Below are positions 13,480 to 50,170 of a stretch of 57,432 nucleotides of DNA, piece by piece. Source of the stretch: a virus (Duplodnaviria; Caudoviricetes). Within the stretch, counting starts at the first letter, position 1; every line of letters begins with the position of its first letter. A model generated the notes under the pieces. The model had not been told where the DNA came from. It ran no database searches and saw only the letters and a program-made list of their open reading frames with translations. The position numbers and the translations under genes are program-made. The stretch is from positions 1-57,432 of IMG/VR virus record IMGVR_UViG_3300035703_000111; one strand, given 5' to 3'.

Positions 13480-13658
13480 TGATGGTTCACATGGACTTGG
13501 AGAACTACTACAAGATAAATTTTGCCCTCATGCAGTTCCATAAATATTCATTAACAGAGATTGAAAATATGATGCCTTGGGAGCGTGACATTTATGTTGG
13601 ATTACTCCAAAATCATCTGGAAGAAGAAAAACTAAGACAACAACAAAATGGCGGTTGA
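13479..13658 (+). CDS. gp51: baseplate hub assembly catalyst (59 aa)
   Basis: Not in ORF track. YYKINFALMQFHKYSLTEIENMMPWERDIYV.LL is the cyanophage gp51 signature. Confidence 0.88.
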   Translation: MMVHMDLENYYKINFALMQFHKYSLTEIENMMPWERDIYVGLLQNHLEEEKLRQQQNGG

Positions 13659-34258: not shown

Positions 34259-35611
34259 TTGGCTATAGATAAGAACTTTGTAGTAAAGCATGGTTTAGAG
34301 GTAAATACGGACCTCATTCTTGCAAACGCTACAACAAATCAAGTTGGTATCGCTACCACTGTTACAAAATACACTCTTCATGTTAATGGTGGTATTGGTG
34401 CAACCAACCTATCAGTAACAGGCGTAGCAACATTTCCTCAAGTAGTATTAACAGGATCTGTAAGTGCTGCGTCAACAACAGGTATATCTGGACAGTATTT
34501 AAAATCCACTGGAACTGGCGTTGTCTGGGAAAATTTTCCTGTAGGTAGAACATCTACTACATTTGTCGCATCATCGGGACAAGACACATTCAGTTTTGCG
34601 TATGCTGTTGGTCTTGTTGATATTTTTGTAAATGGAATTAAACTTACTCCATCAGAATTTAATGCCTCTGATGGAGTTTCTATTGTATTGAACACTCCAT
34701 GTTTTGGTGGAGAAGTTGTAGATGTTCATGCATACTCTGTATCTGGAATTGGTCTTGGTGGAACTGGAATCACTGGTTTAACCGTTCAAGATGAAGGATC
34801 AATTGTTGGTACTCCACAAGGCGTAACATCAATTAATTTTATTGGTGCTGGACTAACAGCATCTGCATCAGGAGCAGGATTGACTGTAAGTTTGCAAGAT
34901 GCTTGGACTCCAACATCTTCAGGAATAAGTACACTTTCAAATGTTGGTATTGGAACCACAAATCCAAGATTTGCATTAGAAGTTGGTTCGGTTGGTTATA
35001 ATAACACTTCACTTCATGTAAATGGAAATGCAAGAGTTACTGGAATTTTAACAGTTGGAAATTCTAGCATCACTCTTAATGGAGTTACTGATACTTTAAG
35101 TGTTCCAAATCTTATTGTTACAAATTCTTCCTCTGGTGTTATTGGTGCTGCAGTTAGCGTAAGAGATAATGGCACAGATTTAGGTCTTGCAGAAATCATT
35201 GATTTTGGTGAGAATGTTTCAGTATCGTTCGCATCTGGTATTGCAACTGTTACTGGATTTTCTTTCTGGGATTCATATAGTGTTGGAATTTATATTCATA
35301 CATTTTCTGACGTTGGTATTGGAACAACAATACCAACAACTAAACTTTCAGTTGTTGGAAGCACATCTGCTACAGAAACTACCTTTACAAATCAGTTAAG
35401 TGTAGGAACTGGCGGAACTGTAATTACTACAACTTCTGGTGGATTGGTCGGTATTGGAACCACGATTCCAACAAGTAATCTAACTGTTCGAGGAGGTGAT
35501 GTTTCTGTTGGTGTTAGTACTGCTCACGGTGTTATTCTTACATCACCAAATGGAACTCAATATCGTCTCATCGTAGCTGATAATGGTACACTCAGCACTA
35601 CTGCTGTCTAA
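34259..35611 (+). CDS. tail fibre-like protein
   Basis: TTG start with GGGGAG SD; KNFVVK.GL start; VGIGTT.P repeats; C-terminal LTSPNGT.YRL.V...G.L. Confidence 0.8.
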   Translation: MAIDKNFVVKHGLEVNTDLILANATTNQVGIATTVTKYTLHVNGGIGATNLSVTGVATFPQVVLTGSVSAASTTGISGQYLKSTGTGVVWENFPVGRTSTTFVASSGQDTFSFAYAVGLVDIFVNGIKLTPSEFNASDGVSIVLNTPCFGGEVVDVHAYSVSGIGLGGTGITGLTVQDEGSIVGTPQGVTSINFIGAGLTASASGAGLTVSLQDAWTPTSSGISTLSNVGIGTTNPRFALEVGSVGYNNTSLHVNGNARVTGILTVGNSSITLNGVTDTLSVPNLIVTNSSSGVIGAAVSVRDNGTDLGLAEIIDFGENVSVSFASGIATVTGFSFWDSYSVGIYIHTFSDVGIGTTIPTTKLSVVGSTSATETTFTNQLSVGTGGTVITTTSGGLVGIGTTIPTSNLTVRGGDVSVGVSTAHGVILTSPNGTQYRLIVADNGTLSTTAV

Positions 35612-35637
35612 TAAATAAAACATAAGGAACTCCAGAG

Positions 35638-36807
35638 ATGGCAAATAACCGAGAACTATCACAATTTGGAAACTTTATATCGGTCAATGATACCTCTGAA
35701 AATATTGGTATCAGTACGGATGTAATCATTTCTGGAGTTCTAACTGCTACCAGATATTATGGTGATGGATCACAACTTACAGGAATCGCAACAGTCGGCG
35801 GTGGAACAACTCTAGGAATCACGACAATTTCTCAACTGACTGTTACTGGAATCACAACTCTTGGAAGTGTATCTGCAACAAGTCTAAGTGTATCTGGCGC
35901 TTCTACATTTGGAAATATTTTTTTAAATCCAGTAGGAATTATTACTGCTAATGTTGGTGTTGTAACTTATTATGGTGATGGTTCCAAACTAACTGGAGTT
36001 ATTTCTGGTGTTGGAATTAAAACTGCGGGAGGAACTGTAGGATCTGGAGCTACAGTATTAGATTTCCGTGGATCTGGAATTTCTACAGTTACTGTTGGAT
36101 CTGGAATCGGAACCATCTTCATCCAAGGTGGTGGAGGAGGAGGTTCGGTCAGCATTAGTAGTGTTGCACCAACTTCGCCATCAAGTGGTGATTTGTGGTA
36201 TAGTATTGATTATGGTAGAACTTTTGTTTACTACGATGAAGTTGTACTAGGTGTTGGTTCATCTGCATTTTGGGTAGATGCCGCACCATTCAATGTAAAT
36301 CTTTCTCAATTTGATAGTTTAAGTGTTGCAAATCTTACAGTAAACAACACCACAAAACTTCTTGGTGTTACTACTGCAAATGTACTTAATGTTACTGGTG
36401 TTACTACACTAAGTACATTAAATGTTACTGGTGTTACTGCACTAAGTACATTAAATGTCGCTGGAATTGCAACTCTCACGAGTCTTAATGTTGCAAATGT
36501 AAATTCTTCAGGTATCGTTACTGCAGTTGACTTTAACTCCACATCTGATATCAATCTCAAAGAAAATATTAACACTATTGATAGTGCTCTAGAAACTGTA
36601 AATCAACTTCGTGGAGTTTCATTTGATTGGAAGGATACTGGAAGAAGATCTTATGGTGTAATTGCTCAGGAGATTGAAAAAATACTTCCAGAACTTGTTT
36701 CAAATTCTGATATAAAAACGGTAAATTATAATGGTATTATTGGAGTTTTGATTGAAGCAGTAAAAGAACTTTCTGCTGAGATTGAAGAACTTAAGAGTAA
36801 TAAATAA
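35638..36807 (+). CDS. tail fibre protein with C-terminal S74 intramolecular chaperone
   Basis: SDINLKENI..I..AL..V..LRGV.F.WK......GVIAQE.E..LPELV...V.Y.G....LIEA.KEL. Confidence 0.88.
   Translation: MANNRELSQFGNFISVNDTSENIGISTDVIISGVLTATRYYGDGSQLTGIATVGGGTTLGITTISQLTVTGITTLGSVSATSLSVSGASTFGNIFLNPVGIITANVGVVTYYGDGSKLTGVISGVGIKTAGGTVGSGATVLDFRGSGISTVTVGSGIGTIFIQGGGGGGSVSISSVAPTSPSSGDLWYSIDYGRTFVYYDEVVLGVGSSAFWVDAAPFNVNLSQFDSLSVANLTVNNTTKLLGVTTANVLNVTGVTTLSTLNVTGVTALSTLNVAGIATLTSLNVANVNSSGIVTAVDFNSTSDINLKENINTIDSALETVNQLRGVSFDWKDTGRRSYGVIAQEIEKILPELVSNSDIKTVNYNGIIGVLIEAVKELSAEIEELKSNK
36388..36458 (+). repeat. 33-bp tandem repeat (NVTGVTTLSTL)
   Basis: Two near-identical 33-bp units plus degenerate copies in the fibre shaft. 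Confidence 0.8.
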
Positions 36808-36836
36808 GATAAGTAAAGCCGAGTGGAAACACGAAG

Positions 36837-37196
36837 ATGGCAATTCAAATTTCGGGAACGACTGTTATTGATAACAGTCGAAACCTGGCAAATATAGCAA
36901 CTTTTGATAGTACTATTACTTCAGTTTGGGATACTGTTACGGTAACGGCAACTGGAAAAACTCTAGTAAATAGAGAACACTGTACTGTAACTGCGGCGGG
37001 CCAAACAATTACTCTTCCGGCAACACCAAGTGTTGGATGGGAAGTGGTTGTTTCGGTTGGTAACTTTGCAGATACTATTGTTGCAAGAAATGGTCAAAAT
37101 ATTATGGGGCTTGCAGAGGATATTACTCTCGATAAAGCATATGCTGTGATGAATTTTATTTACACTGGAGCAACTCAAGGTTGGAGGATCTACTGA
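36837..37196 (+). CDS. fibre-tip adaptor-like protein (cassette 1)
   Basis: MAIQISGTTVID.SR start; TITLPA.P..G..V.V......ARNG.NIMGLAE..TLD...Y....GW domain. Confidence 0.75.
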   Translation: MAIQISGTTVIDNSRNLANIATFDSTITSVWDTVTVTATGKTLVNREHCTVTAAGQTITLPATPSVGWEVVVSVGNFADTIVARNGQNIMGLAEDITLDKAYAVMNFIYTGATQGWRIY

Positions 37197-37197
37197 T

Positions 37198-38487
37198 ATG
37201 TCAGTTTTAAGTCAATTTTTTCCATCAGGTAGTGGTGGTAATGATGGAGTAAGAACTAATATTCTCTTAGTAGGTGGAGGAGCAGGCGGCAACCCTGCTG
37301 GTGGAGCATCATGCACTACATCTCCCAATTTAAACTTTGCGTCCGGTGGTGGTGGCGGTGGAGGAGGTCAAGTTTATGAATTTACAAATTATCAAATTTC
37401 TCCAGGATCTCAAATTTGTGTAACTATTGGTTCTGGAGGAGCTACATCTAGTTCTGGCGGAGATAGTTCAGTAACCATCGTTGGTGTTTCTACAGTAGTT
37501 TCTAAAGGTGGAAGATCTTCATCATTCCCAGGAACTTCTTTGGCACCAGATGTAACTTGCGCTACAGTCGATTACTTTTACAACAATGGATCACCACTTG
37601 GTGGTGGTGGTGGTGGTGCCACGGGTTTCTCTTGCTTTAGCCCTAGTCCAACTCCAACAGCACCTGGACCTGGTGGTTGCATCGGTGCAATTCCTTCCGG
37701 ATCAGTATACTGTGGAGTTGCTTCTTGTATTTCGTCTGGTGTATTGTGCAACTCTAGTGTTAATGATAACTTAATAAGAAAAGCAATAGGATGTCCAGGA
37801 GGTACTTCGCAGTGTAGTACCTGTGCATATCCAGCGCCAAGTCCATACCAATTCTATTCTTGTTATCGCAGTGGAATAGGAGGAGGTGGAGGAGGAGGAT
37901 CTGCTGGAACTGGATCCAATGGATCGATCAAGTCTCCCGCGCCAACTCCATATGTTCCAGGTCCCTGTGTAGGGTGCATCAACTCCTGTCACGGCGGAGG
38001 GCCTGGTGGGGCTGGTGGAAATGCATATTGTTCGGTAATTTCGGGAGGTATTCTTTCATATGGCGCTGGTGGAGGTGGAGGTGGAGGAAACTTTAATCTT
38101 ATAACCTCTACTGCTGCAGCGCAGCGACCTTGCGTTAATTATACATCTATAAGAGGATGTGGAGGGATCTCTGTTAATGGTGGATGTGGTGGATGTGGAG
38201 GAAACGGTACAACGCCAGATTATCCACAAATACCAGCAGCACCGAGCGGATGTCCTGGTGGTAATGGTACTGCTAACACTGGCGGTGGTGGTGGAGGTGG
38301 AGGTGCCGGACCAACAACACAAGGTACTGGCGGATCTGGTGGATCTGGAGTAGCTATAATTCAATATCCAACGCAATATGCATCAGTTGCAGCGCCGGCA
38401 CGACCAGGTGGATGTGATTGCTCTCCAGCAACTCCTGGATTCTACACTTATAAGTTTAATGGTCCTGGTTCCATCACATTACCATAA
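37198..38487 (+). CDS. Gly/Pro/Cys-rich adhesin-like protein (cassette 1)
   Basis: LLVGGGAGG, poly-Gly runs separating variable loops, ANTGGGGGG, GGSGVAII.YP, Y.F...GSIT; more than 20 Cys. Confidence 0.8.
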   Translation: MSVLSQFFPSGSGGNDGVRTNILLVGGGAGGNPAGGASCTTSPNLNFASGGGGGGGGQVYEFTNYQISPGSQICVTIGSGGATSSSGGDSSVTIVGVSTVVSKGGRSSSFPGTSLAPDVTCATVDYFYNNGSPLGGGGGGATGFSCFSPSPTPTAPGPGGCIGAIPSGSVYCGVASCISSGVLCNSSVNDNLIRKAIGCPGGTSQCSTCAYPAPSPYQFYSCYRSGIGGGGGGGSAGTGSNGSIKSPAPTPYVPGPCVGCINSCHGGGPGGAGGNAYCSVISGGILSYGAGGGGGGGNFNLITSTAAAQRPCVNYTSIRGCGGISVNGGCGGCGGNGTTPDYPQIPAAPSGCPGGNGTANTGGGGGGGGAGPTTQGTGGSGGSGVAIIQYPTQYASVAAPARPGGCDCSPATPGFYTYKFNGPGSITLP

Positions 38488-38505
38488 GAAGGAGGATAAT
38501 TTAAG

Positions 38506-38991
38506 ATGGCACATTTCGCACAACTAGATGACAATAACAAAGTTGTTAATGTAATTGTAATTCAAAATGAATTTATGATTGATGAAAATGGTAATGAAAG
38601 TGAAGAATTGGGTATTGAAAGATGTAAGCAGTTTACAGATCCAAATTCAAAATGGGTCCAAACATCATATAATGGAAACTTTAGAGGTAAATTCGCATCT
38701 ATTGGTGGATATTATTCTGATGACTTGGATGTATTCTCTTTTCCAAAACCACATAATTCTTGGGTTTTTAATGAAGAAACATTAGATTGGGATGCTCCAG
38801 TTGAAATGCCAGATGATGCACCAGCAGGCCAATATTATATTTGGAATGAAGATATAACTAATTGGCAACTACATCCACCAGTTCCAATGCCAGATGATGC
38901 ACCAGAAGGATCTTATTATCAGTGGAGTACTGAAACTGAATCTTGGGAGCTTAAACAATTTCCAGAACCAGTAGGTATTGCTACAACTTAA
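38506..38991 (+). CDS. MAHFA-family fibre assembly/chaperone-like protein (cassette 1)
   Basis: GGAGG SD; MAHFAQLD.NN.V..VIV...WVQTSYN..FR..FA..G..Y....D.F..PKP..SW; Trp-rich repeats. Confidence 0.8.
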   Translation: MAHFAQLDDNNKVVNVIVIQNEFMIDENGNESEELGIERCKQFTDPNSKWVQTSYNGNFRGKFASIGGYYSDDLDVFSFPKPHNSWVFNEETLDWDAPVEMPDDAPAGQYYIWNEDITNWQLHPPVPMPDDAPEGSYYQWSTETESWELKQFPEPVGIATT

Positions 38992-38992
38992 A

Positions 38993-39021
38993 TTGACACT
39001 TTAAGATCTCTCATATATAAT
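38993..39021 (+). promoter_or_regulatory. consensus sigma70 (early) promoter for the modification-enzyme operon
   Basis: TTGACA-17 nt-TATAAT, 24 nt upstream of the 39046 ATG. Confidence 0.88.
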
Positions 39022-39045
39022 ATCGTTGAGTACATCATAACTTGA

Positions 39046-39684
39046 ATGGCATATCAAAGTATTTGGTACTATACCAATATTCCAAAAGAAATCGTAGATA
39101 TTATTGAGAGAGATTTAACAGAACAGTTTGATCCACAACTTCACGAATCGCGAGTTGGTGGAGGTGGTGATGGTGGAGTTTTAGATAAAGATAAAAGAAA
39201 TGCTCGCAATGCATGGGTTCCTACAACTCATTGGATTGCGGGATTTCTATGGCATTATGTTACAAGAGCCAATCGTGAAAATTTTCTTTATGATTTAACA
39301 AATATTGATGGAGAATCTCTTCAATATACTATGTATGGAGAAGGAGAACATTATGGATGGCATAACGACGCTGGTTTATCGGGACAATATAAACCAGTAT
39401 CGGCAGGAAATCGCGGTCACGGTGGAGAAATTCTTCAAGATTTTGTGAATGAAAATTGTGAAAAAGTGAGGAAACTATCATTCTCTCTTCAACTTTCTGA
39501 TCCAGAAGATTATGAAGGTGGAAACTTTCAATTGATGGATGAAACTGGTAAAAATTATTTTGCCCCAAGACAAAGAGGAACTATTGTTCTTTTTGATTCT
39601 CGTGCAATGCATCGTGTTCTTCCAGTAAAGAAAGGAGTTCGTAAGAGTATTGTTGGTTGGACAGTTGGACCGCGCTGGAAGTGA
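39046..39684 (+). CDS. 2OG-Fe(II) oxygenase, prolyl-4-hydroxylase/PKHD-like
   Basis: LQYT.Y..G..YGWH.D, RKLS..LQLSDP..YEGG, G.IV.FDS...HRV.PV..G.R.S.VGW. Confidence 0.9.
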   Translation: MAYQSIWYYTNIPKEIVDIIERDLTEQFDPQLHESRVGGGGDGGVLDKDKRNARNAWVPTTHWIAGFLWHYVTRANRENFLYDLTNIDGESLQYTMYGEGEHYGWHNDAGLSGQYKPVSAGNRGHGGEILQDFVNENCEKVRKLSFSLQLSDPEDYEGGNFQLMDETGKNYFAPRQRGTIVLFDSRAMHRVLPVKKGVRKSIVGWTVGPRWK

Positions 39685-39691
39685 GGTAAGT

Positions 39692-40408
39692 ATGGCAGAA
39701 GGAATGACACAAGAACAACTTGACTTTCAAGAGAGAGTCAATTCTGGTTCATCAAAAACAAATAATGAAGATTTTGAAAAAAATGGTTATTTGGTAGTTA
39801 AAAATCTTTGGGATCCCAAAGAACTTTATTGTGAGGTTCCTGAGATTCGCGGACAAATTAACTACTTTGGAAAGTTAAATAAGTTCCATCATGAACCGTT
39901 AGAAATGCAAGTAGAAGGATCTCTTGCTCGTTATTATTATCCACCTTATAAATTTGCGCATTCTCAAATTCGCAAAAAACTTGAAAAAGTTCTTGGAAGT
40001 GAACTAGCAAATACTTATTATTACGATAGATTTTATTTTCCAGGACAAGAATTAACAAAACATGCAGATCGTGATGCTTGTGAAATTTCAGTCACAGTTC
40101 ATATCAGTACTAATCTGAAAGAACCTTGGCCTATTTGGATTAAAACTCCAGATACTTATGATAATCCAAACACAAAAATGAATGTTCTTAAAAGGGGTGA
40201 GAATCGTTCTGTAATTCTTAATCCAGGAGATGGAATGATTTACAAAGGTTGTGAAAGACCTCATTGGAGAGATCCAATGCCGACTGAATATACCAGAACT
40301 TGGTATGGTAGACGAAAAGAAAAAGAAGGTTTATACTATCATCAAGTGTTTTTCCATTATGTTCTTGCAAATGGTTATCGAGCACAATTTGCAGGCGATA
40401 TGAAATAA
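39692..40408 (+). CDS. 2OG-Fe(II) oxygenase superfamily protein
   Basis: GAGG SD; Y..G..L..H.DR..CEISVT, GDG..Y.GC...HWR, Q.F.HYV. Confidence 0.8.
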   Translation: MAEGMTQEQLDFQERVNSGSSKTNNEDFEKNGYLVVKNLWDPKELYCEVPEIRGQINYFGKLNKFHHEPLEMQVEGSLARYYYPPYKFAHSQIRKKLEKVLGSELANTYYYDRFYFPGQELTKHADRDACEISVTVHISTNLKEPWPIWIKTPDTYDNPNTKMNVLKRGENRSVILNPGDGMIYKGCERPHWRDPMPTEYTRTWYGRRKEKEGLYYHQVFFHYVLANGYRAQFAGDMK

Positions 40409-40423
40409 TAAAAGGAGTTAAGA

Positions 40424-42118
40424 ATGATTACACTTGGAGTTTATGGGTCTTTTGATTGGAGAGCAGATAAATCCTTTAATGAATTTGGAGAACCAACATG
40501 GTGCCATGATGCTGGTGCCACTCTCTTCATTGATGGAAAACATATTTGTTCTATTTCTGAAGAAAGATTATCAAGAATTAAACATGATGGAAACTTTCCT
40601 ATTCGTTCAATAGGATATTGCATGGATGTTGGAAATATCACTCTAGATGATGTTGATTTAGTATGCATCCCTTCAATGTGTGTTACCATGTTCTATAAGA
40701 AATGGTATGACGGTACGATTGAAAAAATGATCTCTAATCTTTGTCCGAACGCAAAGATTCAATTTGTTTCTCATCATTTAAGTCATGCAGCTGCCGCAGT
40801 GTTTTCTTGTGACTTCAATGAAGGATCATTTTTAACTCTTGATGGTGCAGGTTCCTTAACATTTAAACATAATTTTAACGGAACCTACATGGCAGAAACC
40901 AACTCCATTGGTTACTTTAATAAAGAAAAGAGTATTTTCCGTTTCTTTAATGGTATTTCCGGTGCAAATAACTTTGGTGGTTTCTATCATGGTTTATCAC
41001 ATCATATCTATTGTGAAAAGGTTCAAAAAAATATTGATGGATATGATGAGAAATATCGTGAGACCTGGGATGGAAAAATTATGGGACTTTCTGCCTATGG
41101 AAGTTCTATGGAATTCAAAAATGAGCATAGACTTTATTCTATGTCCAAAGATCTTTGTTATGATGATATTCCTTATGTAGCATTTTCTGAAGATCCCTCC
41201 GAAGCATTTAAATTTAAAAATGCAGATGAAAAATCATTTATTCTCCAAAAGAACTTTGAGTTAGCACTTTTAGATTATGTAACTGAACTCAAGAACAATT
41301 CATATCTTGAAGATAATATTTGTCTTTCTGGAGGTTCTTTCTTAAATGTTTTAGGAAATAGTGTTCTCAAACAAAGTGGACTATTCAAAGGAATTCATAT
41401 TCCACCTTGTCCGAATGATGTAGGTCTTCATTTTGGTGCTGCTTGTTTCGCACAATTTAAAAATAATGAACCTATTGAACTTCCGGAAAACATTGCACTT
41501 CTTGGAAAGGAATATTCCGAAGAAGAGATTGAAAATGCACTAAAAGAAAGTCAAGTTAATTATGAGAAATATGATAACTTTGAAGAACTCTGTGAATTCA
41601 CAGCTCTCCAATTAAATGATAATAAGATCATTGGTTGGTTTCAAAATCGTTCAGAGTTTGGACCTAGAGCACTTGGATCTCGTTCACTTTTGATGCATCC
41701 AGGTCCAGCAGAAAATAAAGATATTATCAATGAAAGAGTTAAACACCGTGAATATTGGAGACCTTTTGCTGGTATTATCCTCGAAGAACACTTAGTAGAT
41801 TATTTCAATGAAGATTTCAATTCTCCCCACATGCTTTACTCTCTTACAGTCAAAGAAGACAGAAGAGATGAAATTGCGGCAATTACTCACAAAGATAACA
41901 CTTGCCGCATTCAAACAGTAAATGCTAGATTAAACCCACAAGTAAATACTCTAATTGAAAAGTTCAAAGAAGTATCAGGTATTCCTGTTGTTCTAAATAC
42001 ATCATTCAATGATAATGGAGAACCCATTGTCGAATCACCTCAAGATGCAATCAAGTCATTTAATAATATGGACATTGATTATCTTGTGATTGGAAACTTT
42101 ATTGTAAGAAAATTCTAA
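40424..42118 (+). CDS. carbamoyltransferase (NodU/CmcH/TobZ family)
   Basis: HDAGA, EERLSRIKH, HHLSHAA, LDGAG, GKIMGLSAYG, EFGPRALGSRS, VKHRE.WRPFA, LNTSFN..GEPIV. Confidence 0.95.
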   Translation: MITLGVYGSFDWRADKSFNEFGEPTWCHDAGATLFIDGKHICSISEERLSRIKHDGNFPIRSIGYCMDVGNITLDDVDLVCIPSMCVTMFYKKWYDGTIEKMISNLCPNAKIQFVSHHLSHAAAAVFSCDFNEGSFLTLDGAGSLTFKHNFNGTYMAETNSIGYFNKEKSIFRFFNGISGANNFGGFYHGLSHHIYCEKVQKNIDGYDEKYRETWDGKIMGLSAYGSSMEFKNEHRLYSMSKDLCYDDIPYVAFSEDPSEAFKFKNADEKSFILQKNFELALLDYVTELKNNSYLEDNICLSGGSFLNVLGNSVLKQSGLFKGIHIPPCPNDVGLHFGAACFAQFKNNEPIELPENIALLGKEYSEEEIENALKESQVNYEKYDNFEELCEFTALQLNDNKIIGWFQNRSEFGPRALGSRSLLMHPGPAENKDIINERVKHREYWRPFAGIILEEHLVDYFNEDFNSPHMLYSLTVKEDRRDEIAAITHKDNTCRIQTVNARLNPQVNTLIEKFKEVSGIPVVLNTSFNDNGEPIVESPQDAIKSFNNMDIDYLVIGNFIVRKF

Positions 42119-43089
42119 TGAAAACAATTATTAACATTGACGGTGGAGTTGGTCGTATTATTGCTGCTATTCCTGCACTTTTAAAGTATGGAAAATTGCA
42201 TCCAGATGAAGATTGGTATGTTATGATTCCTGGATGGGATATTATGACATGGAGTATCCCTGAGCTTCAGCAAAGAACATTCAATCCAGAAACAAAAGGA
42301 ATGTTTGAGAATTATTACTGGGATGCCGATAAGGTTATTGCACCAGAACCTTATAAACTTCCCGCATTTTATCGTAATGAAATTTCTCTAAGAGAAGCAT
42401 TTGATCGTACTATCAATAATACCGAAGATCATAGCGATCTTCCTGATCTTACTTTAAAATTGAGTCTTGATGAAATTATTCGTGCAAAGGAAATTGTCAA
42501 ATCCGTTAAGAAGGATTCAAATAAAAAAGTAATTGTTTTTCAACCTTATGGAAGTACATCTCAATACACCGAGATGGGGATTTATGATAAGAGTATGAGA
42601 TCCATCACTCATTATATGGCTCGTAAATTGTGTGAAAAACTTACTAAAGACTATATTATGATCTCAATGAATGAGTGGTGCAATGAAGAAGGAGTTGTTA
42701 CTTTACAACCCGATCCAGACCTTCGTACATGGGCTGCGATTATTCAAGAAGCGGATTATTTTATTGGATGCGACAGTTGCGGTCAGCATATGGCAAAAGC
42801 AGTTGGAACTCCTGCATCGGTTGTAATTGCAGGAACTCATGAAGTTGCTATTTCTTACCCAGAAACTTTTCATATCATTAAACGTGAAGGAGTTAAGTTC
42901 CATCCAGGACCGATGAGAGTTTCGAATATCAATTCAATGTTGACTGAGAAACTTAATGAAGAAAGAAATGCCTTTACGGACGAAGAGATTGATGCTGCAT
43001 ATAAAGAAATCGTAAAAAGAATTTCTAAGGCAGGAAAAAATAAATCTGAAGTAAAAGAAGAGAAAAAAGAAAATAAGGGATTTAGTTGA
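42118..43089 (+). CDS. GT9-like (heptosyltransferase-fold) glycosyltransferase
   Basis: GG.GR.I...PAL N-terminus; WAAII..AD.FIGCDS..QH.A.A.G.P..V C-terminal GT-B motif. Confidence 0.75.
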   Translation: MKTIINIDGGVGRIIAAIPALLKYGKLHPDEDWYVMIPGWDIMTWSIPELQQRTFNPETKGMFENYYWDADKVIAPEPYKLPAFYRNEISLREAFDRTINNTEDHSDLPDLTLKLSLDEIIRAKEIVKSVKKDSNKKVIVFQPYGSTSQYTEMGIYDKSMRSITHYMARKLCEKLTKDYIMISMNEWCNEEGVVTLQPDPDLRTWAAIIQEADYFIGCDSCGQHMAKAVGTPASVVIAGTHEVAISYPETFHIIKREGVKFHPGPMRVSNINSMLTEKLNEERNAFTDEEIDAAYKEIVKRISKAGKNKSEVKEEKKENKGFS

Positions 43090-43451
43090 TGAATCTACCT
43101 CTTGTTCCAATTTCTATTGGAGAATTGCTTGATAAAATAACAATTCTCCAAATCAAATCAAAAAAATCCAACAATCATTATATTCATAAAGAATTAAATG
43201 AATTAATTAAGATTGCAGAAGATTTTAATGTTTATAAACAATCTTATTTGGATGATCTTTTATCAGTAAATCTTCAATTGTGGGATATTGAGGATCGTCT
43301 TCGTGATTTAGAAAAAATCCAAAAATTTGATGATGAGTTTATTGATCTTGCTCGTAAAGTTTACATAACAAACGATAAAAGATCTGAGATTAAAAAGAAA
43401 ATAAATGAAGAAACTAATTCAAATTATCAAGAGGTAAAATTATACTCATGA
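43089..43451 (+). CDS. DUF6165-like protein
   Basis: PISIGEL.DKITIL.IK...L..VN..LW.IED..R......FD..FI.LAR.VY..ND.R..IK..IN.....EVK.Y. Confidence 0.8.
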   Translation: MNLPLVPISIGELLDKITILQIKSKKSNNHYIHKELNELIKIAEDFNVYKQSYLDDLLSVNLQLWDIEDRLRDLEKIQKFDDEFIDLARKVYITNDKRSEIKKKINEETNSNYQEVKLYS

Positions 43452-44269
43452 TCTTACTACCTTTAACTAGTTTACCTAGAAGTGGATCAACTCTTCTAAT
43501 GTCTATTCTGGGACAAAATCCAAAATTTCATTTGGGAGATGATTCTGAACTTGGAAATCTACTGAATCATAATAAGGAATTTATGATTTCAAACATACGT
43601 CATTTTCAATTACCTCATGAAACTGCAAGTGAATGTTTTTATGAATTTTGTAGAAAAGGAACAGAGGCTTGGATTTCAAATATTACTCCAAGTGATAAAA
43701 TATTTCTAGATAAATCAAGACACTGGTTAAAAGATTTAGATTATTTTTTTCAAGTATTTCCTGATATAAAAATAATTATCAATATTAGAGACTTAAGAGG
43801 TATTGTAAACTCTTTTGAAAAAATTCACAATAACTCTTTGTTCATAGATAAGGCAAGTTTTTATAATCAACTAAATTTTGATCTTCAAATGCAAAGGGTC
43901 AATAATATTTTGAACTTTGATTATTTAAAAGATGGACTTATTTCTCTCAAAGAAATTATAGATATTCCCAAAAAATATAAAGATAAAATTTTTGTCTGTA
44001 AGTATGAAAAACTGTTAGACAATCCAGTAGAAGAGATAGGAAAAATATATGAATTTTTAGAATTACCAGTATTCAAACACAATTTTGATGAAATAGATCA
44101 AAAACCATATAATGATAATCCATATCAACCTTATGGATGCCATAAGATTAAATCAAAGGTTGAAAAAAGGCCAGAACATTTTTCAGATTTAAGAGAAGAT
44201 ATATCAAATATGATCATTAATGAATATAGATGGTATTATGATATTTTTTATAGAGAAGTTTTAAATTAA
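43448..44269 (+). CDS. PAPS-dependent sulfotransferase
   Basis: LPRSGSTLL..IL.Q (5'-PSB), DKSR.W, IRDLR....SF (3'-PB), KYE.L...P. Confidence 0.88.
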   Translation: MILLPLTSLPRSGSTLLMSILGQNPKFHLGDDSELGNLLNHNKEFMISNIRHFQLPHETASECFYEFCRKGTEAWISNITPSDKIFLDKSRHWLKDLDYFFQVFPDIKIIINIRDLRGIVNSFEKIHNNSLFIDKASFYNQLNFDLQMQRVNNILNFDYLKDGLISLKEIIDIPKKYKDKIFVCKYEKLLDNPVEEIGKIYEFLELPVFKHNFDEIDQKPYNDNPYQPYGCHKIKSKVEKRPEHFSDLREDISNMIINEYRWYYDIFYREVLN

Positions 44270-44270
44270 T

Positions 44271-44825
44271 ATGTTCAAAAAAATAAATTCTGATTTTCCA
44301 ATTTTTGTTTGGAGTAACTTTTTAAATCTAGATGATACTCAAAGAATTGAATTAATGAGTATTGTTTTAGAAAATAAAAAAAGAAATCATCATGGAGTAG
44401 GTGGTAGTTTTAAAATTAACTACGATCCTACTTCTTTTTTTAGTGAATTATATTCAAAGTTTTTTGATATATCAAATCAATTTTTTGATGATTTAAAGAT
44501 TCTTCCAAATAACTCTAGTATGTGTTGGTCTTATAGTAGTAATAATGTGGATCATGGACCAGGAATGATTCATAACCATATAAACACATCAACAATTAAT
44601 TCAGTGTATTATCTTAATGTTCCAGATTCTGCAACTATAGACAATGGATCCATTCAATTTTTCTTAAATGGAAAGACTTTTTCTTATAGACCAAATAGAT
44701 TTGATCTTGTTGTTTTTCCAAATTACTTAGACCATAGAATTAATTACTTAAATGATCCTGAATATAGGATTTCCATTAACATGGAGATTTTATGTGAAAA
44801 TGATCCACATATTCTTTTCATATAA
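44271..44825 (+). CDS. 2OG-Fe(II) oxygenase superfamily protein
   Basis: HNH......SVYYL..P...G.I.F...P....LVVFP.YL.H........RISIN. Confidence 0.75.
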   Translation: MFKKINSDFPIFVWSNFLNLDDTQRIELMSIVLENKKRNHHGVGGSFKINYDPTSFFSELYSKFFDISNQFFDDLKILPNNSSMCWSYSSNNVDHGPGMIHNHINTSTINSVYYLNVPDSATIDNGSIQFFLNGKTFSYRPNRFDLVVFPNYLDHRINYLNDPEYRISINMEILCENDPHILFI

Positions 44826-44828
44826 ATA
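44821..44828 (+). promoter_or_regulatory. T4-type late promoter (cassette 2)
   Basis: TATAAATA 25 nt upstream of the 44854 ATG. Confidence 0.75.
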
Positions 44829-44853
44829 AGAGATAGAAGTATATAAACTCATA

Positions 44854-45312
44854 ATGTCTCAAACGAGAGCACAACTTATATCTCCGGTTGGCATTTTAAC
44901 CGCAAATGGTATTAATGTTACCGGAGTTGTGACTGCAACAACTTTTAATGGTCGAGCAACTGGATTAACTACTACTTCAAATATTAATATTGGAATTGCA
45001 ACTGTTACTAGTTTAGGTGGAGTTGCTTATGTTGCAATTACTACAACTTCATCAAATAAAACTCTAGTAAATCGTGAATACTGCACTGCTGTAGGAGTTG
45101 GTACTGCTGCAGGAATTACGATCACTTTACCTGCATCACCTTCACCTGGATGGGAAGTTGGAGTTGCTGTAGGTGGTACTTTTACAGATACAGTTATCGC
45201 AAGAAATGGTGTAAATATTATGGGTCTTGCAGAAAACATGACCCTCGATAGAGCATATATAGCAGTAAGATTGGTTTATACAAGTTCATCAGTCGGTTGG
45301 AGGTTTTTCTAA
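44854..45312 (+). CDS. fibre-tip adaptor-like protein (cassette 2)
   Basis: KTLVNREYCT...TITLPA.P..GWEV.V.VG..F.DT..ARNG.NIMGLAE..TLD.AY...GWR; paralog of 36837..37196. Confidence 0.78.
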   Translation: MSQTRAQLISPVGILTANGINVTGVVTATTFNGRATGLTTTSNINIGIATVTSLGGVAYVAITTTSSNKTLVNREYCTAVGVGTAAGITITLPASPSPGWEVGVAVGGTFTDTVIARNGVNIMGLAENMTLDRAYIAVRLVYTSSSVGWRFF

Positions 45313-46380
45313 ATGTCAGTAATTAGTCAGTTTTTTCCTTCTGGATCTGGTGGTGGTGGCGGATCTACTAATATTGGTGGCGGATCTATTCCGGTAGAAA
45401 TTTTAGGTATTTCCGGTGGCGGTGGCGGTGGAACGGGATCTAATCCAAGTCCATATGGTGCTACAGTAAGTATAAATAATGGTGGGCCTGGAGGAATGGG
45501 CGCATTCTTCTATGCAAGTAATTATTTTATAAATCCAGGAGTAACTTATCCAATATGCGTTGGCGCTGGCGGCGGTTGTGGAACTTCTCCAGGTCCTTGT
45601 CAAGGTGCAAGAGGATCAAATGGTGGATTTACTTCATTTAATAATCCTATCTGTACTCTACGAGTAGAAGGGGGTGGTGGTGGAGGAGGAGGAGGATGCA
45701 ATCCATCTCCACCTATTGCTCCCGGACTTCCTGGAGGAACTGGTGGAGCAGGATCTGCAGGAAACGCTCCTGGATCTGGATTGTATTTTACTTCACTACC
45801 AGTTTCTTTTTGCGGTACAACTTGTACCTTTTTAAATTTGTGTAATGGACAAGGAACAGGATGTATATGGGGAAATATATATCCACTTGCAAATGTAGAT
45901 GCACGTTATATGGTCAATCCTTGGGGATTTAGTGGAGGATTTCCTGGCACTCCTGGTTTTACTGTAGGACCTATTCCTAGTGGGCCCACATCATATTGTA
46001 CTATATCAGGTAGAGGTGGTGGAATGATAAATAATGCTTCTTATTATTCAAATCTGAATGGCCCTTGGGTATGCCAGTATCTACAAACTTGCATTTTCAG
46101 ATGCGAAACAGGATATACTTCTAATATTACTGGGTCATCATATACTTATGGTGGACCAAGTTGTATAGCATCTGGTGGATCAGGTGGATCTTCTCCAGGT
46201 CCAACTATTATAGCTCCCGGAACATCAGGTTGTGCAGGAGTACTTGTTATTAGATGGCCAGTTAACGCAGCTGGAGCTGCACCGCCAACAGGATTCCCTG
46301 GAGGCACTAATATTTCTCCACAAACTCCTGGTTATTACACTTATTGCTTTACTTCATCCGGTTCCATTACATTACCATAA
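45313..46380 (+). CDS. Gly/Pro/Cys-rich adhesin-like protein (cassette 2)
   Basis: MSV.SQFFPSGSGG start and SP.TPG.YTY.F...GSITLP end shared with 37198..38487; about 16 Cys. Confidence 0.8.
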   Translation: MSVISQFFPSGSGGGGGSTNIGGGSIPVEILGISGGGGGGTGSNPSPYGATVSINNGGPGGMGAFFYASNYFINPGVTYPICVGAGGGCGTSPGPCQGARGSNGGFTSFNNPICTLRVEGGGGGGGGGCNPSPPIAPGLPGGTGGAGSAGNAPGSGLYFTSLPVSFCGTTCTFLNLCNGQGTGCIWGNIYPLANVDARYMVNPWGFSGGFPGTPGFTVGPIPSGPTSYCTISGRGGGMINNASYYSNLNGPWVCQYLQTCIFRCETGYTSNITGSSYTYGGPSCIASGGSGGSSPGPTIIAPGTSGCAGVLVIRWPVNAAGAAPPTGFPGGTNISPQTPGYYTYCFTSSGSITLP

Positions 46381-46394
46381 GGAGGAAATAAGAA

Positions 46395-46889
46395 ATGGCT
46401 AGTTTTGCAGAACTTGATGAAAATAATATAGTGATTAATGTAATTAAAATTTCTAACGATGAAATTTTAGATGAAAATGGAAATGAAAGTGAAGAACTAG
46501 GAATTCAAAAATGTAAACAATTATTTGGAGAAGATAAAAAGTGGGTTCAAACTTGGTTCAGTTCTCCTCCACCAAAAAGACATAGAACTGCAATTATTGG
46601 TGGTTTTTATAATGAAAAAAATGATGTTTTTATGGAAGCAAATTATAGAAAAGGTTACATATTAGATGAGCAAGGTTTAAATTGGATCGCTCCTATTCCA
46701 AAACCAAATTCTTCGCATGAAAATCCGATAGAATATGAATGGAATGAAACAACCTTATCTTGGGATGAAGTGGAAATTCCAAAACCACCAATTCCAGAAG
46801 GATCCAGTATTGATTACAAATGGAACACTGAAATAGGAGTATGGGATATTGTTTTACCAGAAGAACCAGTAGGTATCTCAAGCACCTAA
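46395..46889 (+). CDS. MAHFA-family fibre assembly/chaperone-like protein (cassette 2)
   Basis: MASFAELDENN.V..VI...DENGNESEELGI..CKQ...WVQT; paralog of 38506..38991. Confidence 0.8.
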   Translation: MASFAELDENNIVINVIKISNDEILDENGNESEELGIQKCKQLFGEDKKWVQTWFSSPPPKRHRTAIIGGFYNEKNDVFMEANYRKGYILDEQGLNWIAPIPKPNSSHENPIEYEWNETTLSWDEVEIPKPPIPEGSSIDYKWNTEIGVWDIVLPEEPVGISST

Positions 46890-46909
46890 ATATCTAAAAA
46901 AGACGGATA

Positions 46910-48169
46910 ATGGCACTTAACTTTCCAGATAGTCCTACACTTAATCAAGTTTATACAGATTCTACATCTGGTTTTTCATACCAGTGGAATGGAACTGTAT
47001 GGATAAGTTATACACCATCTTCTTCAGGTAATATCAGAACTCTAGATGATATTTCAGCATCTTTTAACGGAACTACTCAAACTTTTCCATTAACATCTTT
47101 AGGAATTTCAGTAACTCCAGCAAATCCACAATCGCTTATTATTAATCTTGGCGGTGTAGTTCAAGATCCCACTGATGATTATACAATTTCCGGAAGTAAT
47201 ATTATTTTTTCAGATGCACCTGTATCTGGACTTAGTTTCTCTGGAATTCTACTTGGTGTGGCAGTTCCTGTTGGTGTTTCTACAGGAGATGTCTACTTTA
47301 GACAAACATATTTTCCAATAGGTGTTCAAACATCATTTGTCTTCATTAATGGATATACTTCTGGATATCTTGATATCTATAAGAATGGTGTAAAACTACT
47401 TGGTTCAACTGATTATACTGCAACTGATGGAATTAATTTCAGTTTAACTCCTGCTGCACAACTTGGAGATGAAATTGAAGCAATTGGTTATAGAGTATCT
47501 TCAATTTCAATCGTCAATGGTGAGAATTTAAATCGACTTAATGTAAGTAATGGAATCTATGCCGGAGGTATAACGACATCATTAGGTGGTTTTGTTGGTA
47601 ATTTAACAGGAACTGCAAGTAATGCAACATATGCAACAACATCTGGAATTGCAACTTATGCAATAACTGCTGGAGTTGCAACGGTTTCTCAAAATCTTAC
47701 AGGTTCACCAAATATTTCTGTAAGTGGTATCAATAATACTGGAATTACTACTTCCGCAGATTTTAGATTAACATCTATTGCAGAAAAAACTACAATTATA
47801 AATGGAAATACTGTTAACTTAGTTTATAATACTGGTGGTGGAAACGTTGCTATTTGCACAAATCCAACAGGAAATATTACTCTTAATGTAACAGGAATTC
47901 CTACAGACTCTAATTTTAATAATAATTCACTATCTTTCTCTGTCATCGTACAAAATACAGGAACTGCAAGAAGTTGTACTGCAGTAACTTTGAATGGTGT
48001 TTCAGAAACTATTTTGTGGTTTGGTGGGTCTCTAAGTGCCGCATTAACTGGAGTAACAACTTCTACTGGTTATGATATTTACAGTTTTGTTGGTATCAAT
48101 ACAATTGGATCAGCTGCAACTACTTCAAATTATATTGTTTTAGGTAATGTAAACGGAGGTTATAGATAA
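46910..48169 (+). CDS. tail fibre/structural protein (cassette 3 lead gene)
   Basis: MALNFP.SP...Q.Y......Y.W.G..W; LDDIS..FNG....F.L; beta-rich C-terminal domain. Confidence 0.75.
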   Translation: MALNFPDSPTLNQVYTDSTSGFSYQWNGTVWISYTPSSSGNIRTLDDISASFNGTTQTFPLTSLGISVTPANPQSLIINLGGVVQDPTDDYTISGSNIIFSDAPVSGLSFSGILLGVAVPVGVSTGDVYFRQTYFPIGVQTSFVFINGYTSGYLDIYKNGVKLLGSTDYTATDGINFSLTPAAQLGDEIEAIGYRVSSISIVNGENLNRLNVSNGIYAGGITTSLGGFVGNLTGTASNATYATTSGIATYAITAGVATVSQNLTGSPNISVSGINNTGITTSADFRLTSIAEKTTIINGNTVNLVYNTGGGNVAICTNPTGNITLNVTGIPTDSNFNNNSLSFSVIVQNTGTARSCTAVTLNGVSETILWFGGSLSAALTGVTTSTGYDIYSFVGINTIGSAATTSNYIVLGNVNGGYR

Positions 48170-49116
48170 TGCCATTTTTGACCAATATCACCTTTAATAA
48201 TAATCAATTCAGTTCTTCAGGTAGAAGAAAAGGTAGTGGAGTATCTCCTAGTGGAATAGTTGTCGAATATGTTTTGATTGGTGGTGGAGGTGGTGCTGGT
48301 GGAGAACTTGGTGGTGGAGGTGCCGGAGGTGGATTTAGAAACGACTCTTTCGATGTGGTTCTAGGCGTTCCTTATACAATTACTGTTGGCGCAGGTGGTG
48401 GATTTGGTGGTCCTGGATCTCCTGGTGGTCTTTATTATCATGGACTTAAAGGAAATAGTTCTAGCTTTGGTGCTCTTGATTCTACAGGTGGCGGTGGTGG
48501 ATTTGGATATTTTTCAAGTGATCCTTCGCAACATCCAGGTGGCAGTGGAGGTGGAGGATCTCAAGGTAGTGGAGGATCTGGAAATACTCCACCGTATTCT
48601 CCTCCACAAGGAAACCCTGGCGGCAGCGGCCAATCTTATGGCGGTGGTGGTGGCGGTGGTGCCGGAGGAACTGGAACCAGTGCTCCAACAACAATTTCCC
48701 CAAGTGGAACTGCTGGCCAAGGAGGGATCGGCCGAGGCGTAACATGGCCAGAACTTCCTGCTTCATATGGTACACCCGGTCCAACTCCAGGAAGATTCTT
48801 TGCTGGTGGTGGCGGTGGTGGTGGCGGAAGTGGAAGAAACGTTTCTGCTCCAGCACAACCAGTCGGCGGTGGAGCTGCTGGAGCTGGTCCCGGAGTTCCG
48901 GTTGGATCCAATGGTTCTGCAGGAATGGGAGGAGGTGGCGGCGCTACTTGGTGGTCAAGTCCAGGACCAGGTAGAGGAGGAAGTGGTGGATCTGGTATTG
49001 TTCTTCTTAGGGCACCTGTAGCACTTTCATATACTGCTCCTGGCGCTTCAGTATTTTCCTCACCAACACATAGAGTATTTGTTTACACGGGTAGTGGATC
49101 AATTACATTCAGTTAA
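48169..49116 (+). CDS. Gly/Pro-rich adhesin-like protein, Cys-free (cassette 3)
   Basis: VEYVLIGGGGG, YTITVGAGG, poly-Gly runs, GGSGIVLLR, F...GSIT. Confidence 0.8.
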   Translation: MPFLTNITFNNNQFSSSGRRKGSGVSPSGIVVEYVLIGGGGGAGGELGGGGAGGGFRNDSFDVVLGVPYTITVGAGGGFGGPGSPGGLYYHGLKGNSSSFGALDSTGGGGGFGYFSSDPSQHPGGSGGGGSQGSGGSGNTPPYSPPQGNPGGSGQSYGGGGGGGAGGTGTSAPTTISPSGTAGQGGIGRGVTWPELPASYGTPGPTPGRFFAGGGGGGGGSGRNVSAPAQPVGGGAAGAGPGVPVGSNGSAGMGGGGGATWWSSPGPGRGGSGGSGIVLLRAPVALSYTAPGASVFSSPTHRVFVYTGSGSITFS

Positions 49117-49121
49117 TTACT

Positions 49122-49508
49122 ATGGCACACTTCGCAGAGTTAGACGACAACAATAAAGTAATCAGAGTTATAGTAGTCCGTAATGAAGATTGTTTAGATT
49201 CCAATGATAATGAATGTGAACAAGTTGGAATCGACTATTGCAAATCTCTCTTTGGAGATAATACTAGATGGATTCAAACATCATATAATTCTAATATAAG
49301 AAATAAGTATGCCGGAATAGGAGACACTTATAGAGAAGATTTAGATGTTTTTATTACACCAAAACCATTTGATTCTTGGATTTTTGATGAAAATACTTTA
49401 ACATGGGAAGCACCAATACAATATCCAAATGATGAAAAAGTCTATAAATGGAACGAAGAACAATATCAAAATATTGGTGATGGATGGGAGTTGGTTTTAG
49501 ATTTATAA
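49122..49508 (+). CDS. MAHFA-family fibre assembly/chaperone-like protein (cassette 3)
   Basis: MAHFAELD.NN.V.RVIVV...WIQTSYN..IR..YAGIG..Y....D.FI.PKP..SW. Confidence 0.8.
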   Translation: MAHFAELDDNNKVIRVIVVRNEDCLDSNDNECEQVGIDYCKSLFGDNTRWIQTSYNSNIRNKYAGIGDTYREDLDVFITPKPFDSWIFDENTLTWEAPIQYPNDEKVYKWNEEQYQNIGDGWELVLDL

Positions 49509-49511
49509 ATA
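49504..49511 (+). promoter_or_regulatory. T4-type late promoter
   Basis: TATAAATA upstream of 49524. Confidence 0.7.
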
Positions 49512-49523
49512 CTTAAAAAACCA

Positions 49524-49859
49524 ATGACAGCTCCAGCAGTAAATCTAACTATTAATAAAGGTACTGATTTCGAAGCAATCTTTACAGTTACAAACTCTGA
49601 TGGTTCTGCTTTTTCATTAGCAAATTATAGTGCAACATCAAAAATAAGAAAGCATCCAACTGCAGCTGCATATAAATCATTTTCGACCACAATCACTGTG
49701 GCAACTGGCGAAATTAAAGTTTCAATGGGTGCAACAACTACATCTACACTTTCTTCTGGTAGAAATTATTATGATGTGATTATTACAAATGTTAGTACTG
49801 GAAAAATTACAAAAGTGTTTGATGGAATGGTATTAGCAGTAGACACGGTATCCGTATGA
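49524..49859 (+). CDS. conserved virion structural protein
   Basis: VNL.I..GTDF...F...L..Y....IRKH...GR.YYDV.I....V..G.V Ig-like module. Confidence 0.7.
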   Translation: MTAPAVNLTINKGTDFEAIFTVTNSDGSAFSLANYSATSKIRKHPTAAAYKSFSTTITVATGEIKVSMGATTTSTLSSGRNYYDVIITNVSTGKITKVFDGMVLAVDTVSV

Positions 49860-50170
49860 ATATTCAAGTCGCTAAAACATTAAATACCTTTAATATAAAT
49901 CTAAAAAAACCAGATAATTATAGTGTAAGAACCTTATCTGGAGGTGTTCAAGTGCCAGCACAATTCTCAGACCTATCTGATTTTGATGCATCAAACGTTC
50001 AAGATAGTTACTTAGTCATGTATGATGCAGCAACACAAAAATACAAAGCAGTGAGTCCTGATTTTGTTCTATCAAAGTCAGTAGAAGATTCGAATTTACC
50101 TACAGATTTTGTTAATCAATTGGATGTTGACTTAGATAATAAGATTGATCTTGATGCGGGAACTTTTTAA
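49856..50170 (+). CDS. hypothetical virion protein
   Basis: L.D.D.S....Y.VMYDA...KY; ends IDLDAGTF. Confidence 0.65.
   Translation: MNIQVAKTLNTFNINLKKPDNYSVRTLSGGVQVPAQFSDLSDFDASNVQDSYLVMYDAATQKYKAVSPDFVLSKSVEDSNLPTDFVNQLDVDLDNKIDLDAGTF

Follow-up and report, generated by a model that had tools for sequence, protein, structure and literature searches.

A cyanophage-type operon that may modify adjacent fibre tips: tip proline and cysteine follow different enzymes

We analysed a 57-kb fragment (57,432 nucleotides, IMG/VR record IMGVR_UViG_3300035703_000111; hereafter the window) of an uncultured aquatic, T4-like cyanomyovirus-type phage, in which baseplate and fibre genes run from position 27591 on and an operon of seven enzyme genes (39046-44825) lies between two cassettes, each encoding an adaptor, a Gly-rich fibre-tip protein and a MAHFA-type partner. 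Across related loci, the proline content of the tips follows a pair of 2-oxoglutarate (2OG) oxygenases present in this operon, and their cysteine content follows its GT9-like glycosyltransferase (GT). We consider it probable that the phage modifies its own receptor-binding fibre tips by proline hydroxylation and by Cys-linked, possibly S-linked, glycosylation, carried out by separable modules. Decoration of the phage's own fibre tips had been proposed in a first-pass annotation of the window, as a chain leading from proline through hydroxyproline (Hyp) and a glycan to carbamoyl and sulfate groups. The general idea is partly supported, in that fibre-tip genes accompany the enzymes in different lineages and tip residues follow the enzymes, but the chain is not.

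Tip composition follows two enzyme sets

From 196 pairs of a Gly-rich gene and a MAHFA gene we obtained 137 rows, after identical MAHFA sequences and enzyme-negative rows with less than 2.5 kb downstream had been dropped. Tip composition was taken from the last 300 residues and enzymes were counted within 9 kb. A Pro content of at least 5.5% was found in 41 of the 45 rows with the oxygenase pair (oxy1 and oxy2) and in 6 of the 92 without it; two of these six, the window's third tip and that of phage Bellamy, have the pair just past 9 kb. At least 3% Cys was found in 19 of 21 rows with the GT and in none of the 116 without it. In a regression over all 20 residues, the strongest positive correlate is Pro for the pair (t 12.1) and Cys for the GT (t 21.8), whereas presence of the GT does not raise Pro (t 0.9). 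Tips with the GT are also lower in Gly and higher in Tyr, and no acceptor residue clearly tracks the sulfotransferase or the third oxygenase of the operon (oxy3). The Pro result recurs in the tip-anchored subset (6/7 versus 2/77 clusters, not counting two that have a single oxygenase and 12 whose flanks are short), where one of the two pair-negative, Pro-rich clusters is a collagen-like protein caught by the filter. A tip-anchored scan with the alignment of tip protein A returned only two loci.

Mapped onto the MAHFA tree, which is poorly resolved, the traits show 11/10 and 6/5 changes. Tree-aware regression keeps the link between GT and Cys at all four lambda values (t at least 10) and that between the pair and Pro at lambda 0-0.8 (t at least 6.3), and none of 5,000 Brownian simulations reached either correlation.

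The alternative that survives best, unlikely as we judge it, is co-inheritance: Cys would serve disulfides or metal binding, Pro would stiffen loops, and the enzymes would be island cargo of the same lineages with other substrates. It draws on the small number of independent tree events, on the frequency of 2OG oxygenases in cyanophages, with weaker oxy2 relatives elsewhere in their genomes, on the many MAHFA cassettes that are free of enzymes, and on a few conserved Cys columns. It does not account for the complete separation within the oxygenase-positive, mostly T4-like loci, where Cys is 3.0-7.3% in all 18 rows with the GT and 0-1.7% in the 27 without it, nor for a link between Cys and GT that spans sequence types and phage groups. 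Pro-rich tips occur in loci of lower GC content (median 0.39 versus 0.48), which speaks against codon bias. In an alignment of 11 relatives, poor in the loops, 78 of 111 Cys columns hold Cys in only one or two sequences and align mostly to Ser and Thr, a pattern that is easier to reconcile with acceptor sites than with a fixed disulfide frame. Codon reassignment was considered as a source of the Cys and rejected, as the enzymes and other fibres of the window are ordinary in Cys and Cys aligns to many residues.

Cys-rich fibres beside the glycosyltransferase

We collected 185 GT loci and counted the 111 with at least 6 kb upstream. A Cys-rich fibre-like open reading frame (ORF) is present in 84 of them (in 42 of 52 after clustering at 90% identity and in 21 of 23 at 75%), compared with 1 of 36 oxy1-anchored and 7 of 93 MAHFA-anchored tail loci that are free of the GT. 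The same 111 loci contain a carbamoyltransferase gene in 73 cases, a DUF6165 gene in 75 and a sulfotransferase gene in 59. The Cys-rich neighbours comprise polyglycine tips, tips that we take from their motifs to be C-type-lectin-like, YadA-like repeats and long S74 fibres. Among cultured phages, such neighbours occur in P-SSM2 and S-CAM1 (8-12% Cys), S-SSM7 (about 11%) and the N4-like vibriophage SBP1, whose GT-adjoining fibre has 41 Cys in 925 amino acids (aa; 4.4%). The GT is absent from four complete cyanophage genomes with 0-0.5% Cys tips, with P-SSM2 as positive control; a search of five Cys-poor IMG/VR records, run without a positive control, was empty.

GT-linked lectin-like domains have a median of 6.5% Cys (n = 69). 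The tip-anchored lectin-like set is a weak control: among its 18 domains without the GT in view, six lie in huge-phage loci and have 2.5-4.1% Cys, and the other 12 have 0-10% and lie in truncated loci or beside DUF6165, carbamoyltransferase or sulfotransferase genes.

Several neighbourhoods of the GT stand out in their own right. Two loci (L353, 4447-7917; L354, 4471-7923) encode 1150-aa fibre proteins with 118-134 Cys directly 5' of the GT and carbamoyltransferase genes. A third (L020, 125-2561) carries a reverse transcriptase, a GT9-like gene and a Cys-rich lectin-like gene consecutively, and may be a diversity-generating retroelement whose target might also be glycosylated. Tryptophan-halogenase genes occur within the GT-linked enzyme blocks of L012 and of S-SSM7 (L419).

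Tip proteins and their partners

Tip protein A (37198-38487, 429 aa; Pfam Gly_rich_2) contains 8.6% Pro and 5.4% Cys and tip protein B (45313-46380, 355 aa) 10.1% and 4.5%, and no other structural protein of the window is as rich in Cys as these two, a point missed in the first-pass annotation. A third Gly-rich tip protein (48169-49116, 315 aa; Gly_rich_2 E 1.4e-10) contains 8.9% Pro. The operon, its two flanking cassettes, the third pair and their promoter motifs all lie on the plus strand. A model of tip A built from a 32-row alignment (pLDDT 70.5) has TNF-like and polyglycine-II domains. Its fold matches the Bxb1 tail-tip chain 9d93_Q (Z 11.2, root-mean-square deviation (rmsd) 3.8, 181 aligned), the Pam3 fibre gp24 (Z 9.3, rmsd 3.8, 166 aligned) and, more weakly, the ALK glycine-rich domain (Z 4.0-4.6). 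It differs from all three in its long Pro/Cys-rich loops; about 40% of the Pro and Cys of tip A lies in low-confidence loops that make up 25% of the chain. Because of these fold matches and their gene position, we assign the Gly-rich products as predicted fibre-tip proteins and expect them in this virion. The first-pass annotation had likened them to the polyglycine sandwich of gp38. Polyglycine-II structures are indeed matched, but the best matches are the TNF-like plus glycine-rich fibres of Bxb1 and Pam3, and gp38 is not among the matches listed in two fold searches of tip A, which included no direct gp38 superposition and are compatible with kinship.

The MAHFA-type partners are 161 aa (A, 38506-38991; PHROG 7759), 164 aa (B, 46395-46889; assigned by PHROG match and MAHFA paralogy) and 128 aa (C, 49122-49508; PHROG 7759) long. 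In phage Pam3, the virion fibre gp24 combines a TNF-like domain with a glycine-rich one, its chaperone gp25 is released and not found in the virion, and the available text describes no modifying enzymes for the two (PMC9608196). By positional analogy, MAHFA is a possible fibre chaperone. It has no Pfam or PDB sequence match and no detected homology to gp25 or Tfa, and it matched only unnamed viral clusters in the Atlas; modelling tip A and MAHFA A as a complex (score 0.00) spoke neither for nor against an interaction. Among 138 MAHFA-anchored loci, a Gly-rich gene immediately precedes MAHFA in 116. Within 4 kb, these 116 contain oxy3 in 28 cases, oxy1 in 10, oxy2 in 7, the sulfotransferase in 5, and the GT or carbamoyltransferase in none. 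Most such cassettes have no enzymes nearby; the cassette thus stands on its own, with the enzymes as optional additions.

Gene order and transcription signals

The thirteen ORFs of the operon and its two flanking cassettes are all stop-free. Both cassettes reported in the first-pass annotation are present, but a third pair of Gly-rich and MAHFA genes (48169-49508) had been missed; it is preceded by a 419-aa fibre gene without a BLAST match to the adaptors. The proposed paralogy of the cassettes holds for the adaptors (55% identical) and the MAHFA proteins (43-54%), whereas a BLAST alignment of the two flanking Gly-rich proteins covers no more than their last ~50 aa. Adaptor A (36837-37196, 119 aa; PHROG 892, 31104) resembles an internal or terminal tail-fibre domain, and adaptor B (44854-45312, 152 aa) was likewise assigned by PHROG. 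Pfam agrees with the enzyme families named earlier for oxy1, the carbamoyltransferase, DUF6165, the sulfotransferase and oxy3, and supports GT9 weakly (21.1 bits, Pfam cut-off 22).

A sigma-70 promoter, TTGACA-17-TATAAT (38993-39021), lies in the gap 5' of oxy1 and is the sole 12/12 match within 35500-50000; the first-pass annotation had missed it. Of 54 distinct regions upstream of oxy1, 31 contain a site matching at least 11/12 positions, and none was found upstream of adaptor (0/33), MAHFA (0/61), GT (0/37) or carbamoyltransferase (0/29) genes, together 0/160 controls. Cassette 1 is preceded by ATAAATA (36800-36806), which we take to be the T4-late-type motif, and cassette 2 by a late-type motif at 44822-44828. 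The motif lies 5' of the adaptor gene in 27 of 33 upstream regions and is not enriched across the window (23 seen, 23.9 expected). Given this split, the enzymes look early and the tips late.

The glycosyltransferase

The GT (42118-43089; T4-GC 302 family) belongs to a large family, with 562 representatives at E<=0.001, and PDB sequence searches with it returned nothing significant. Its model (pLDDT 95) is closest to a GT9 protein (Z 23.6), the lipopolysaccharide (LPS) heptosyltransferase WaaF (Z 21.4) and TibC (Z 20.7); it superposes on residues 97-391 of the TibC chain (4rap) with rmsd 3.0 over 266 aligned residues and has the GT-B heptosyltransferase catalytic fold. The BAHT heptosyltransferases TibC and AAH possess an N-terminal beta-barrel and a four-Cys iron finger (PMC4358343). 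They resemble the window's system in their GT9-like fold, in a gene position beside the adhesin (TibA, AIDA-I) and in a probable heptose donor. The window's GT lacks the barrel (TibC residues 1-97), its model beginning at the catalytic domain, and lacks the iron finger, with four Cys (1.2%) of which only C218 and C221 are invariant among close relatives. The proposed acceptor is also different, Cys instead of Ser. At the heptosyltransferase catalytic-Asp position the window's GT has Arg13, which hhalign places opposite the Asp of a WaaF-like protein (probability 98%); of 102 family rows, 90 have Arg and 7 Lys there. This position is presumably equivalent to that of TibC Asp110, the general base that follows the first strand.

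These features bear on a second alternative, host-surface remodelling, in which early enzymes would alter host LPS or other glycans to block superinfection, and would sit in the fibre island because it is the variable host-recognition cluster. This is how glycosyltransferases in such islands have been interpreted (PMC7029224, PMC12801897). The conserved sigma-70 promoter, the fold of the GT, and heptose genes near it in P-SSM2 and S-CAM1 agree with it. We nevertheless find it rather improbable, as it predicts neither that tip Pro and Cys track different enzymes nor that Cys-studded fibres of unrelated type lie beside the GT, and the Asp of LPS heptosyltransferases is an Arg here.

A genome scan for the GT family returned eight loci, comprising three weak cellular GT9 matches and five full-length members in metagenome-assembled contigs. 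The latter (L409-L413; Polynucleobacter, Woesearchaeota and Marinimicrobia bins) have Cys-rich fibre-like neighbours and are probably phage contigs within these bins.

The oxygenases

In oxy1 (39046-39684; Pfam 2OG-FeII_Oxy_3), residues H106, D108, H189 and R199 are invariant in the alignment and correspond to the HxD..H iron triad and the 2OG-binding basic residue. Its profile matches PiuC (E~1e-11), the prolyl 4-hydroxylase (P4H) 5c5t (1.1e-7) and an algal P4H (1e-4), which places it by sequence in the PKHD/P4H clan, with PiuC outscoring P4H. Its fixed partner oxy2 (39692-40408, likely start ATG at 39692; PHROG 2954; T4-GC 615, annotated as 'ferrochelatase') has no Pfam match and no significant match in a PDB sequence search; the same iron triad (HxD..H.R) is invariant in its alignment, and its proximity to P4H-domain clusters (score 0.91) is a lead only. 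Both genes lie behind fibre genes in S-SM2, S-MbCM6, Bellamy, S-SSM5, S-RSM4 and the 60-kb phage 023Pt_psg01. A distant oxy2 relative in S-PM2 sits elsewhere in the genome, and oxy2 is absent from three complete genomes with low-Pro tips. Relatives of oxy3 (44271-44825; TIGR02466-like, Pfam 2OG-FeII_Oxy_5) are often wedged between tip and MAHFA genes.

The linear pathway of the first-pass annotation, in which Hyp would bear an O-glycan that is then carbamoylated and sulfated, is in our view very unlikely. The four proline motifs cited for it are present, and in tip A the [STA]P[STA]P motif, of the arabinogalactan-protein (AGP) type, exceeds chance (5 versus 0.23 in 2,000 shuffles); the closest relatives also hold oxy1, oxy2, carbamoyltransferase, GT and DUF6165 as one block. 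Measured against the Ser-Pro(n) blocks or clustered [STA]P repeats of extensin and AGP Hyp-glycoproteins, 'extensin-like' was an overstatement, as [STA]P[STA]P is absent from tips B and C and SPPP from all three tips. The regression, in which the GT tracks Cys and not Pro, speaks against Hyp as the glycosylation site, as does the presence of oxy2 in view in only 36 of the 111 GT loci.

Two further arrangements of oxygenase and Gly-rich genes were seen. A recurrent small-phage cassette (L136-L207, for example L147, L155 and L169) contains a Gly-rich gene of ~550 aa, an ORF of ~85 aa, an oxy3-type oxygenase and MAHFA. Phage 023Pt_psg01 (L211) encodes three Gly-rich 'structural' proteins (Pro 5.6-6.1%), MAHFA and five oxygenase-like proteins.

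Carbamoyltransferase and sulfotransferase

The TobZ/NodU-type O-carbamoyltransferase (40424-42118; Pfam NodU-type N and C domains) has Kae1-like and YrdC-like domains with intact HDA and HHxxH motifs. It matches TobZ at E 2.6e-60 and scores under the NodU equivalog cut-off (148 versus 1000 bits). All ten of its closest IMG/VR relatives have the GT in view.

A gene at 26855-27475, which from its resemblance we presume to be Mom-like with an acetyltransferase fold, adjoins a fourth, TIGR02466-like oxygenase (26269-26832) and has no NCBIfam match; together with the early-type promoter it could be cited for DNA hypermodification by oxygenase, carbamoyl and sugar steps on bases. Phage carbamoyltransferases acting on 5-hydroxymethylcytosine do exist, the DNA type co-occurring with thymidylate-synthase homologs (PMC8670742), as in phage HHU4, whose enzyme is 24% identical to the window's. 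Such hypermodification is extremely unlikely here, since a probe of the HHU4 thymidylate-synthase type matched none of 130 carbamoyltransferase loci (gathered mostly via the GT), and all 153 carbamoyltransferases score nearer the window's enzyme than that of HHU4. A thyX-like gene at 3606 is unlinked to the operon, and by sequence we class the carbamoyltransferase as not of the DNA-modifying type.

The sulfotransferase (43448-44269; Pfam Sulfotransfer_3) uses 3'-phosphoadenosine-5'-phosphosulfate (PAPS) by family and has the PAPS-binding loop. Its closest solved relatives are TPST1/2 (E 2.5e-19), and the glycan sulfotransferases listed match at E >= 0.012, contrary to the earlier assumption that it sulfates a glycan.

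Proposed pathway and its weighing

Our data show the gene content, the folds, the catalytic and promoter motifs and the covariation of residues with enzymes, and from them we propose the following steps. The enzymes would be made early from the sigma-70 promoter and be ready when the late tip proteins fold with the help of MAHFA. Oxy1 and oxy2 would hydroxylate prolines in the loops of the polyglycine tips, a role that we regard as fairly likely from the sequence data. With comparable confidence, the GT together with its companion DUF6165 protein (43086-43451; Pfam DUF6165) would add a nucleotide-heptose-type sugar to Cys-studded tips, independently of Hyp. The sugar would most simply sit on the Cys sulfur, with Arg13 stabilising the thiolate in place of the Asp base; we put this forward tentatively, because of the link between GT and Cys and the missing Asp, and O-linkage on a disulfide-bonded tip is possible within the same scheme. 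The carbamoyltransferase would cap that sugar, and the sulfotransferase would sulfate the tip or its sugar, which is the weakest step. The closest solved relatives of these enzymes include the protein-acting P4H, TPST and TibC, and in P-SSM2, S-CAM1 and S-SSM7 genes of the heptose pathway come after the GT. We speculate that the modifications tune charge, stability or receptor binding.

Several points weigh against tip modification. Modification, substrate and virion location are all inferred, from covariation, folds and motifs. The Pro and Cys cut-offs were fixed with the data in view, and enzyme-anchored and tip-anchored loci stand together in the 137 rows. Only two independent pairs with support are available per trait, so that significance is unreachable, and the link between the oxygenase pair and Pro is lost at lambda 1 (t 0.8). 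Exceptions exist: four pair-positive rows have less than 5.5% Pro, the window's third tip is free of Cys, and 27 of the 111 GT loci have no Cys-rich ORF. The best matches of oxy1 are PKHD/PiuC proteins, the GT model is about equally near WaaF and TibC, the closest carbamoyltransferase of S-SSM7 (44%) lies by uvsW, away from fibres, and Tyr is not enriched in the 15 sulfotransferase-linked tips of the 137 (t 0.1). No donor-sugar or PAPS genes were recognised in the 57-kb fragment. Early enzymes and late tips, as suggested by the promoter motifs, would suit enzymes awaiting their substrate and a host target equally.

Relation to known systems

The same pair of GT and carbamoyltransferase lies directly behind fibre genes in cyanomyoviruses (T4-GC 302/303; P-SSM2 gp307-313, S-CAM1, S-SSM7), as does the same oxygenase pair (T4-GC 412/615; S-SM2 gp35-36, S-SSM5 gp42-43, S-MbCM6, Bellamy). 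These genes are annotated as hypothetical, 'ferrochelatase' or LPS genes and have been read as host-surface modifiers. Cultured phages carry single modules, the GT in S-CAM1, P-SSM2 and S-SSM7 and the oxygenase pair in S-SM2, S-MbCM6 and Bellamy, whereas the window has both in one operon, with a sulfotransferase added and no heptose-pathway genes.

The structure 5c5t matched by oxy1 is presumably the P4H of chlorovirus PBCV-1. The window differs from it in being bacteriophage DNA, in its obligate-looking oxygenase pair and in a polyglycine tip in place of collagen-like repeats. Viral Pro-rich substrates have been described for a viral prolyl 4-hydroxylase (as cited in PMC9301287). Mycobacteriophage glycosyltransferases decorate virion proteins (Freeman et al. 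2023, as cited in PMC12619734), with glycans on capsid and tail-tube C-termini, unlike the fibre tips, GT9 fold and carbamoyl, sulfate and hydroxyl steps proposed here; chlorovirus glycosylation is another virus-encoded virion modification (PMC12906663). Virus-encoded virion modification and the presence of these gene families in cultured cyanophages are thus known. This locus contributes the union of the two modules in a single operon, the double dissociation, an Arg in place of the Asp, and the division between early and late promoters. A literature search, largely without subscription papers and excluding supplements, found no report of phage fibre hydroxylation or S-glycosylation, nor of these families tied to fibre tips.

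It is common to list the 2OG oxygenases, 'ferrochelatases' and 'LPS genes' of cyanophages among the auxiliary metabolic genes without known substrate, and for two of these families the covariation singles out a substrate protein and a residue. A broader and doubtful generalization is that aquatic phages share a residue-coded virion-modification kit, with a GT9-derived S-heptosyltransferase for Cys on tips of any fold, carbamoyl and sulfate caps, and a prolyl-hydroxylase pair for Pro-rich tips. If true, S-linked glycosylation would extend to viruses, the 'LPS' and '2OG oxygenase' genes of cyanophages would gain substrates, and host recognition would rest on chemistry invisible in the fibre sequence.

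Elsewhere in the window, an 802-aa protein of the baseplate region (13648-16056) contains a 16-residue unit in three repeats.

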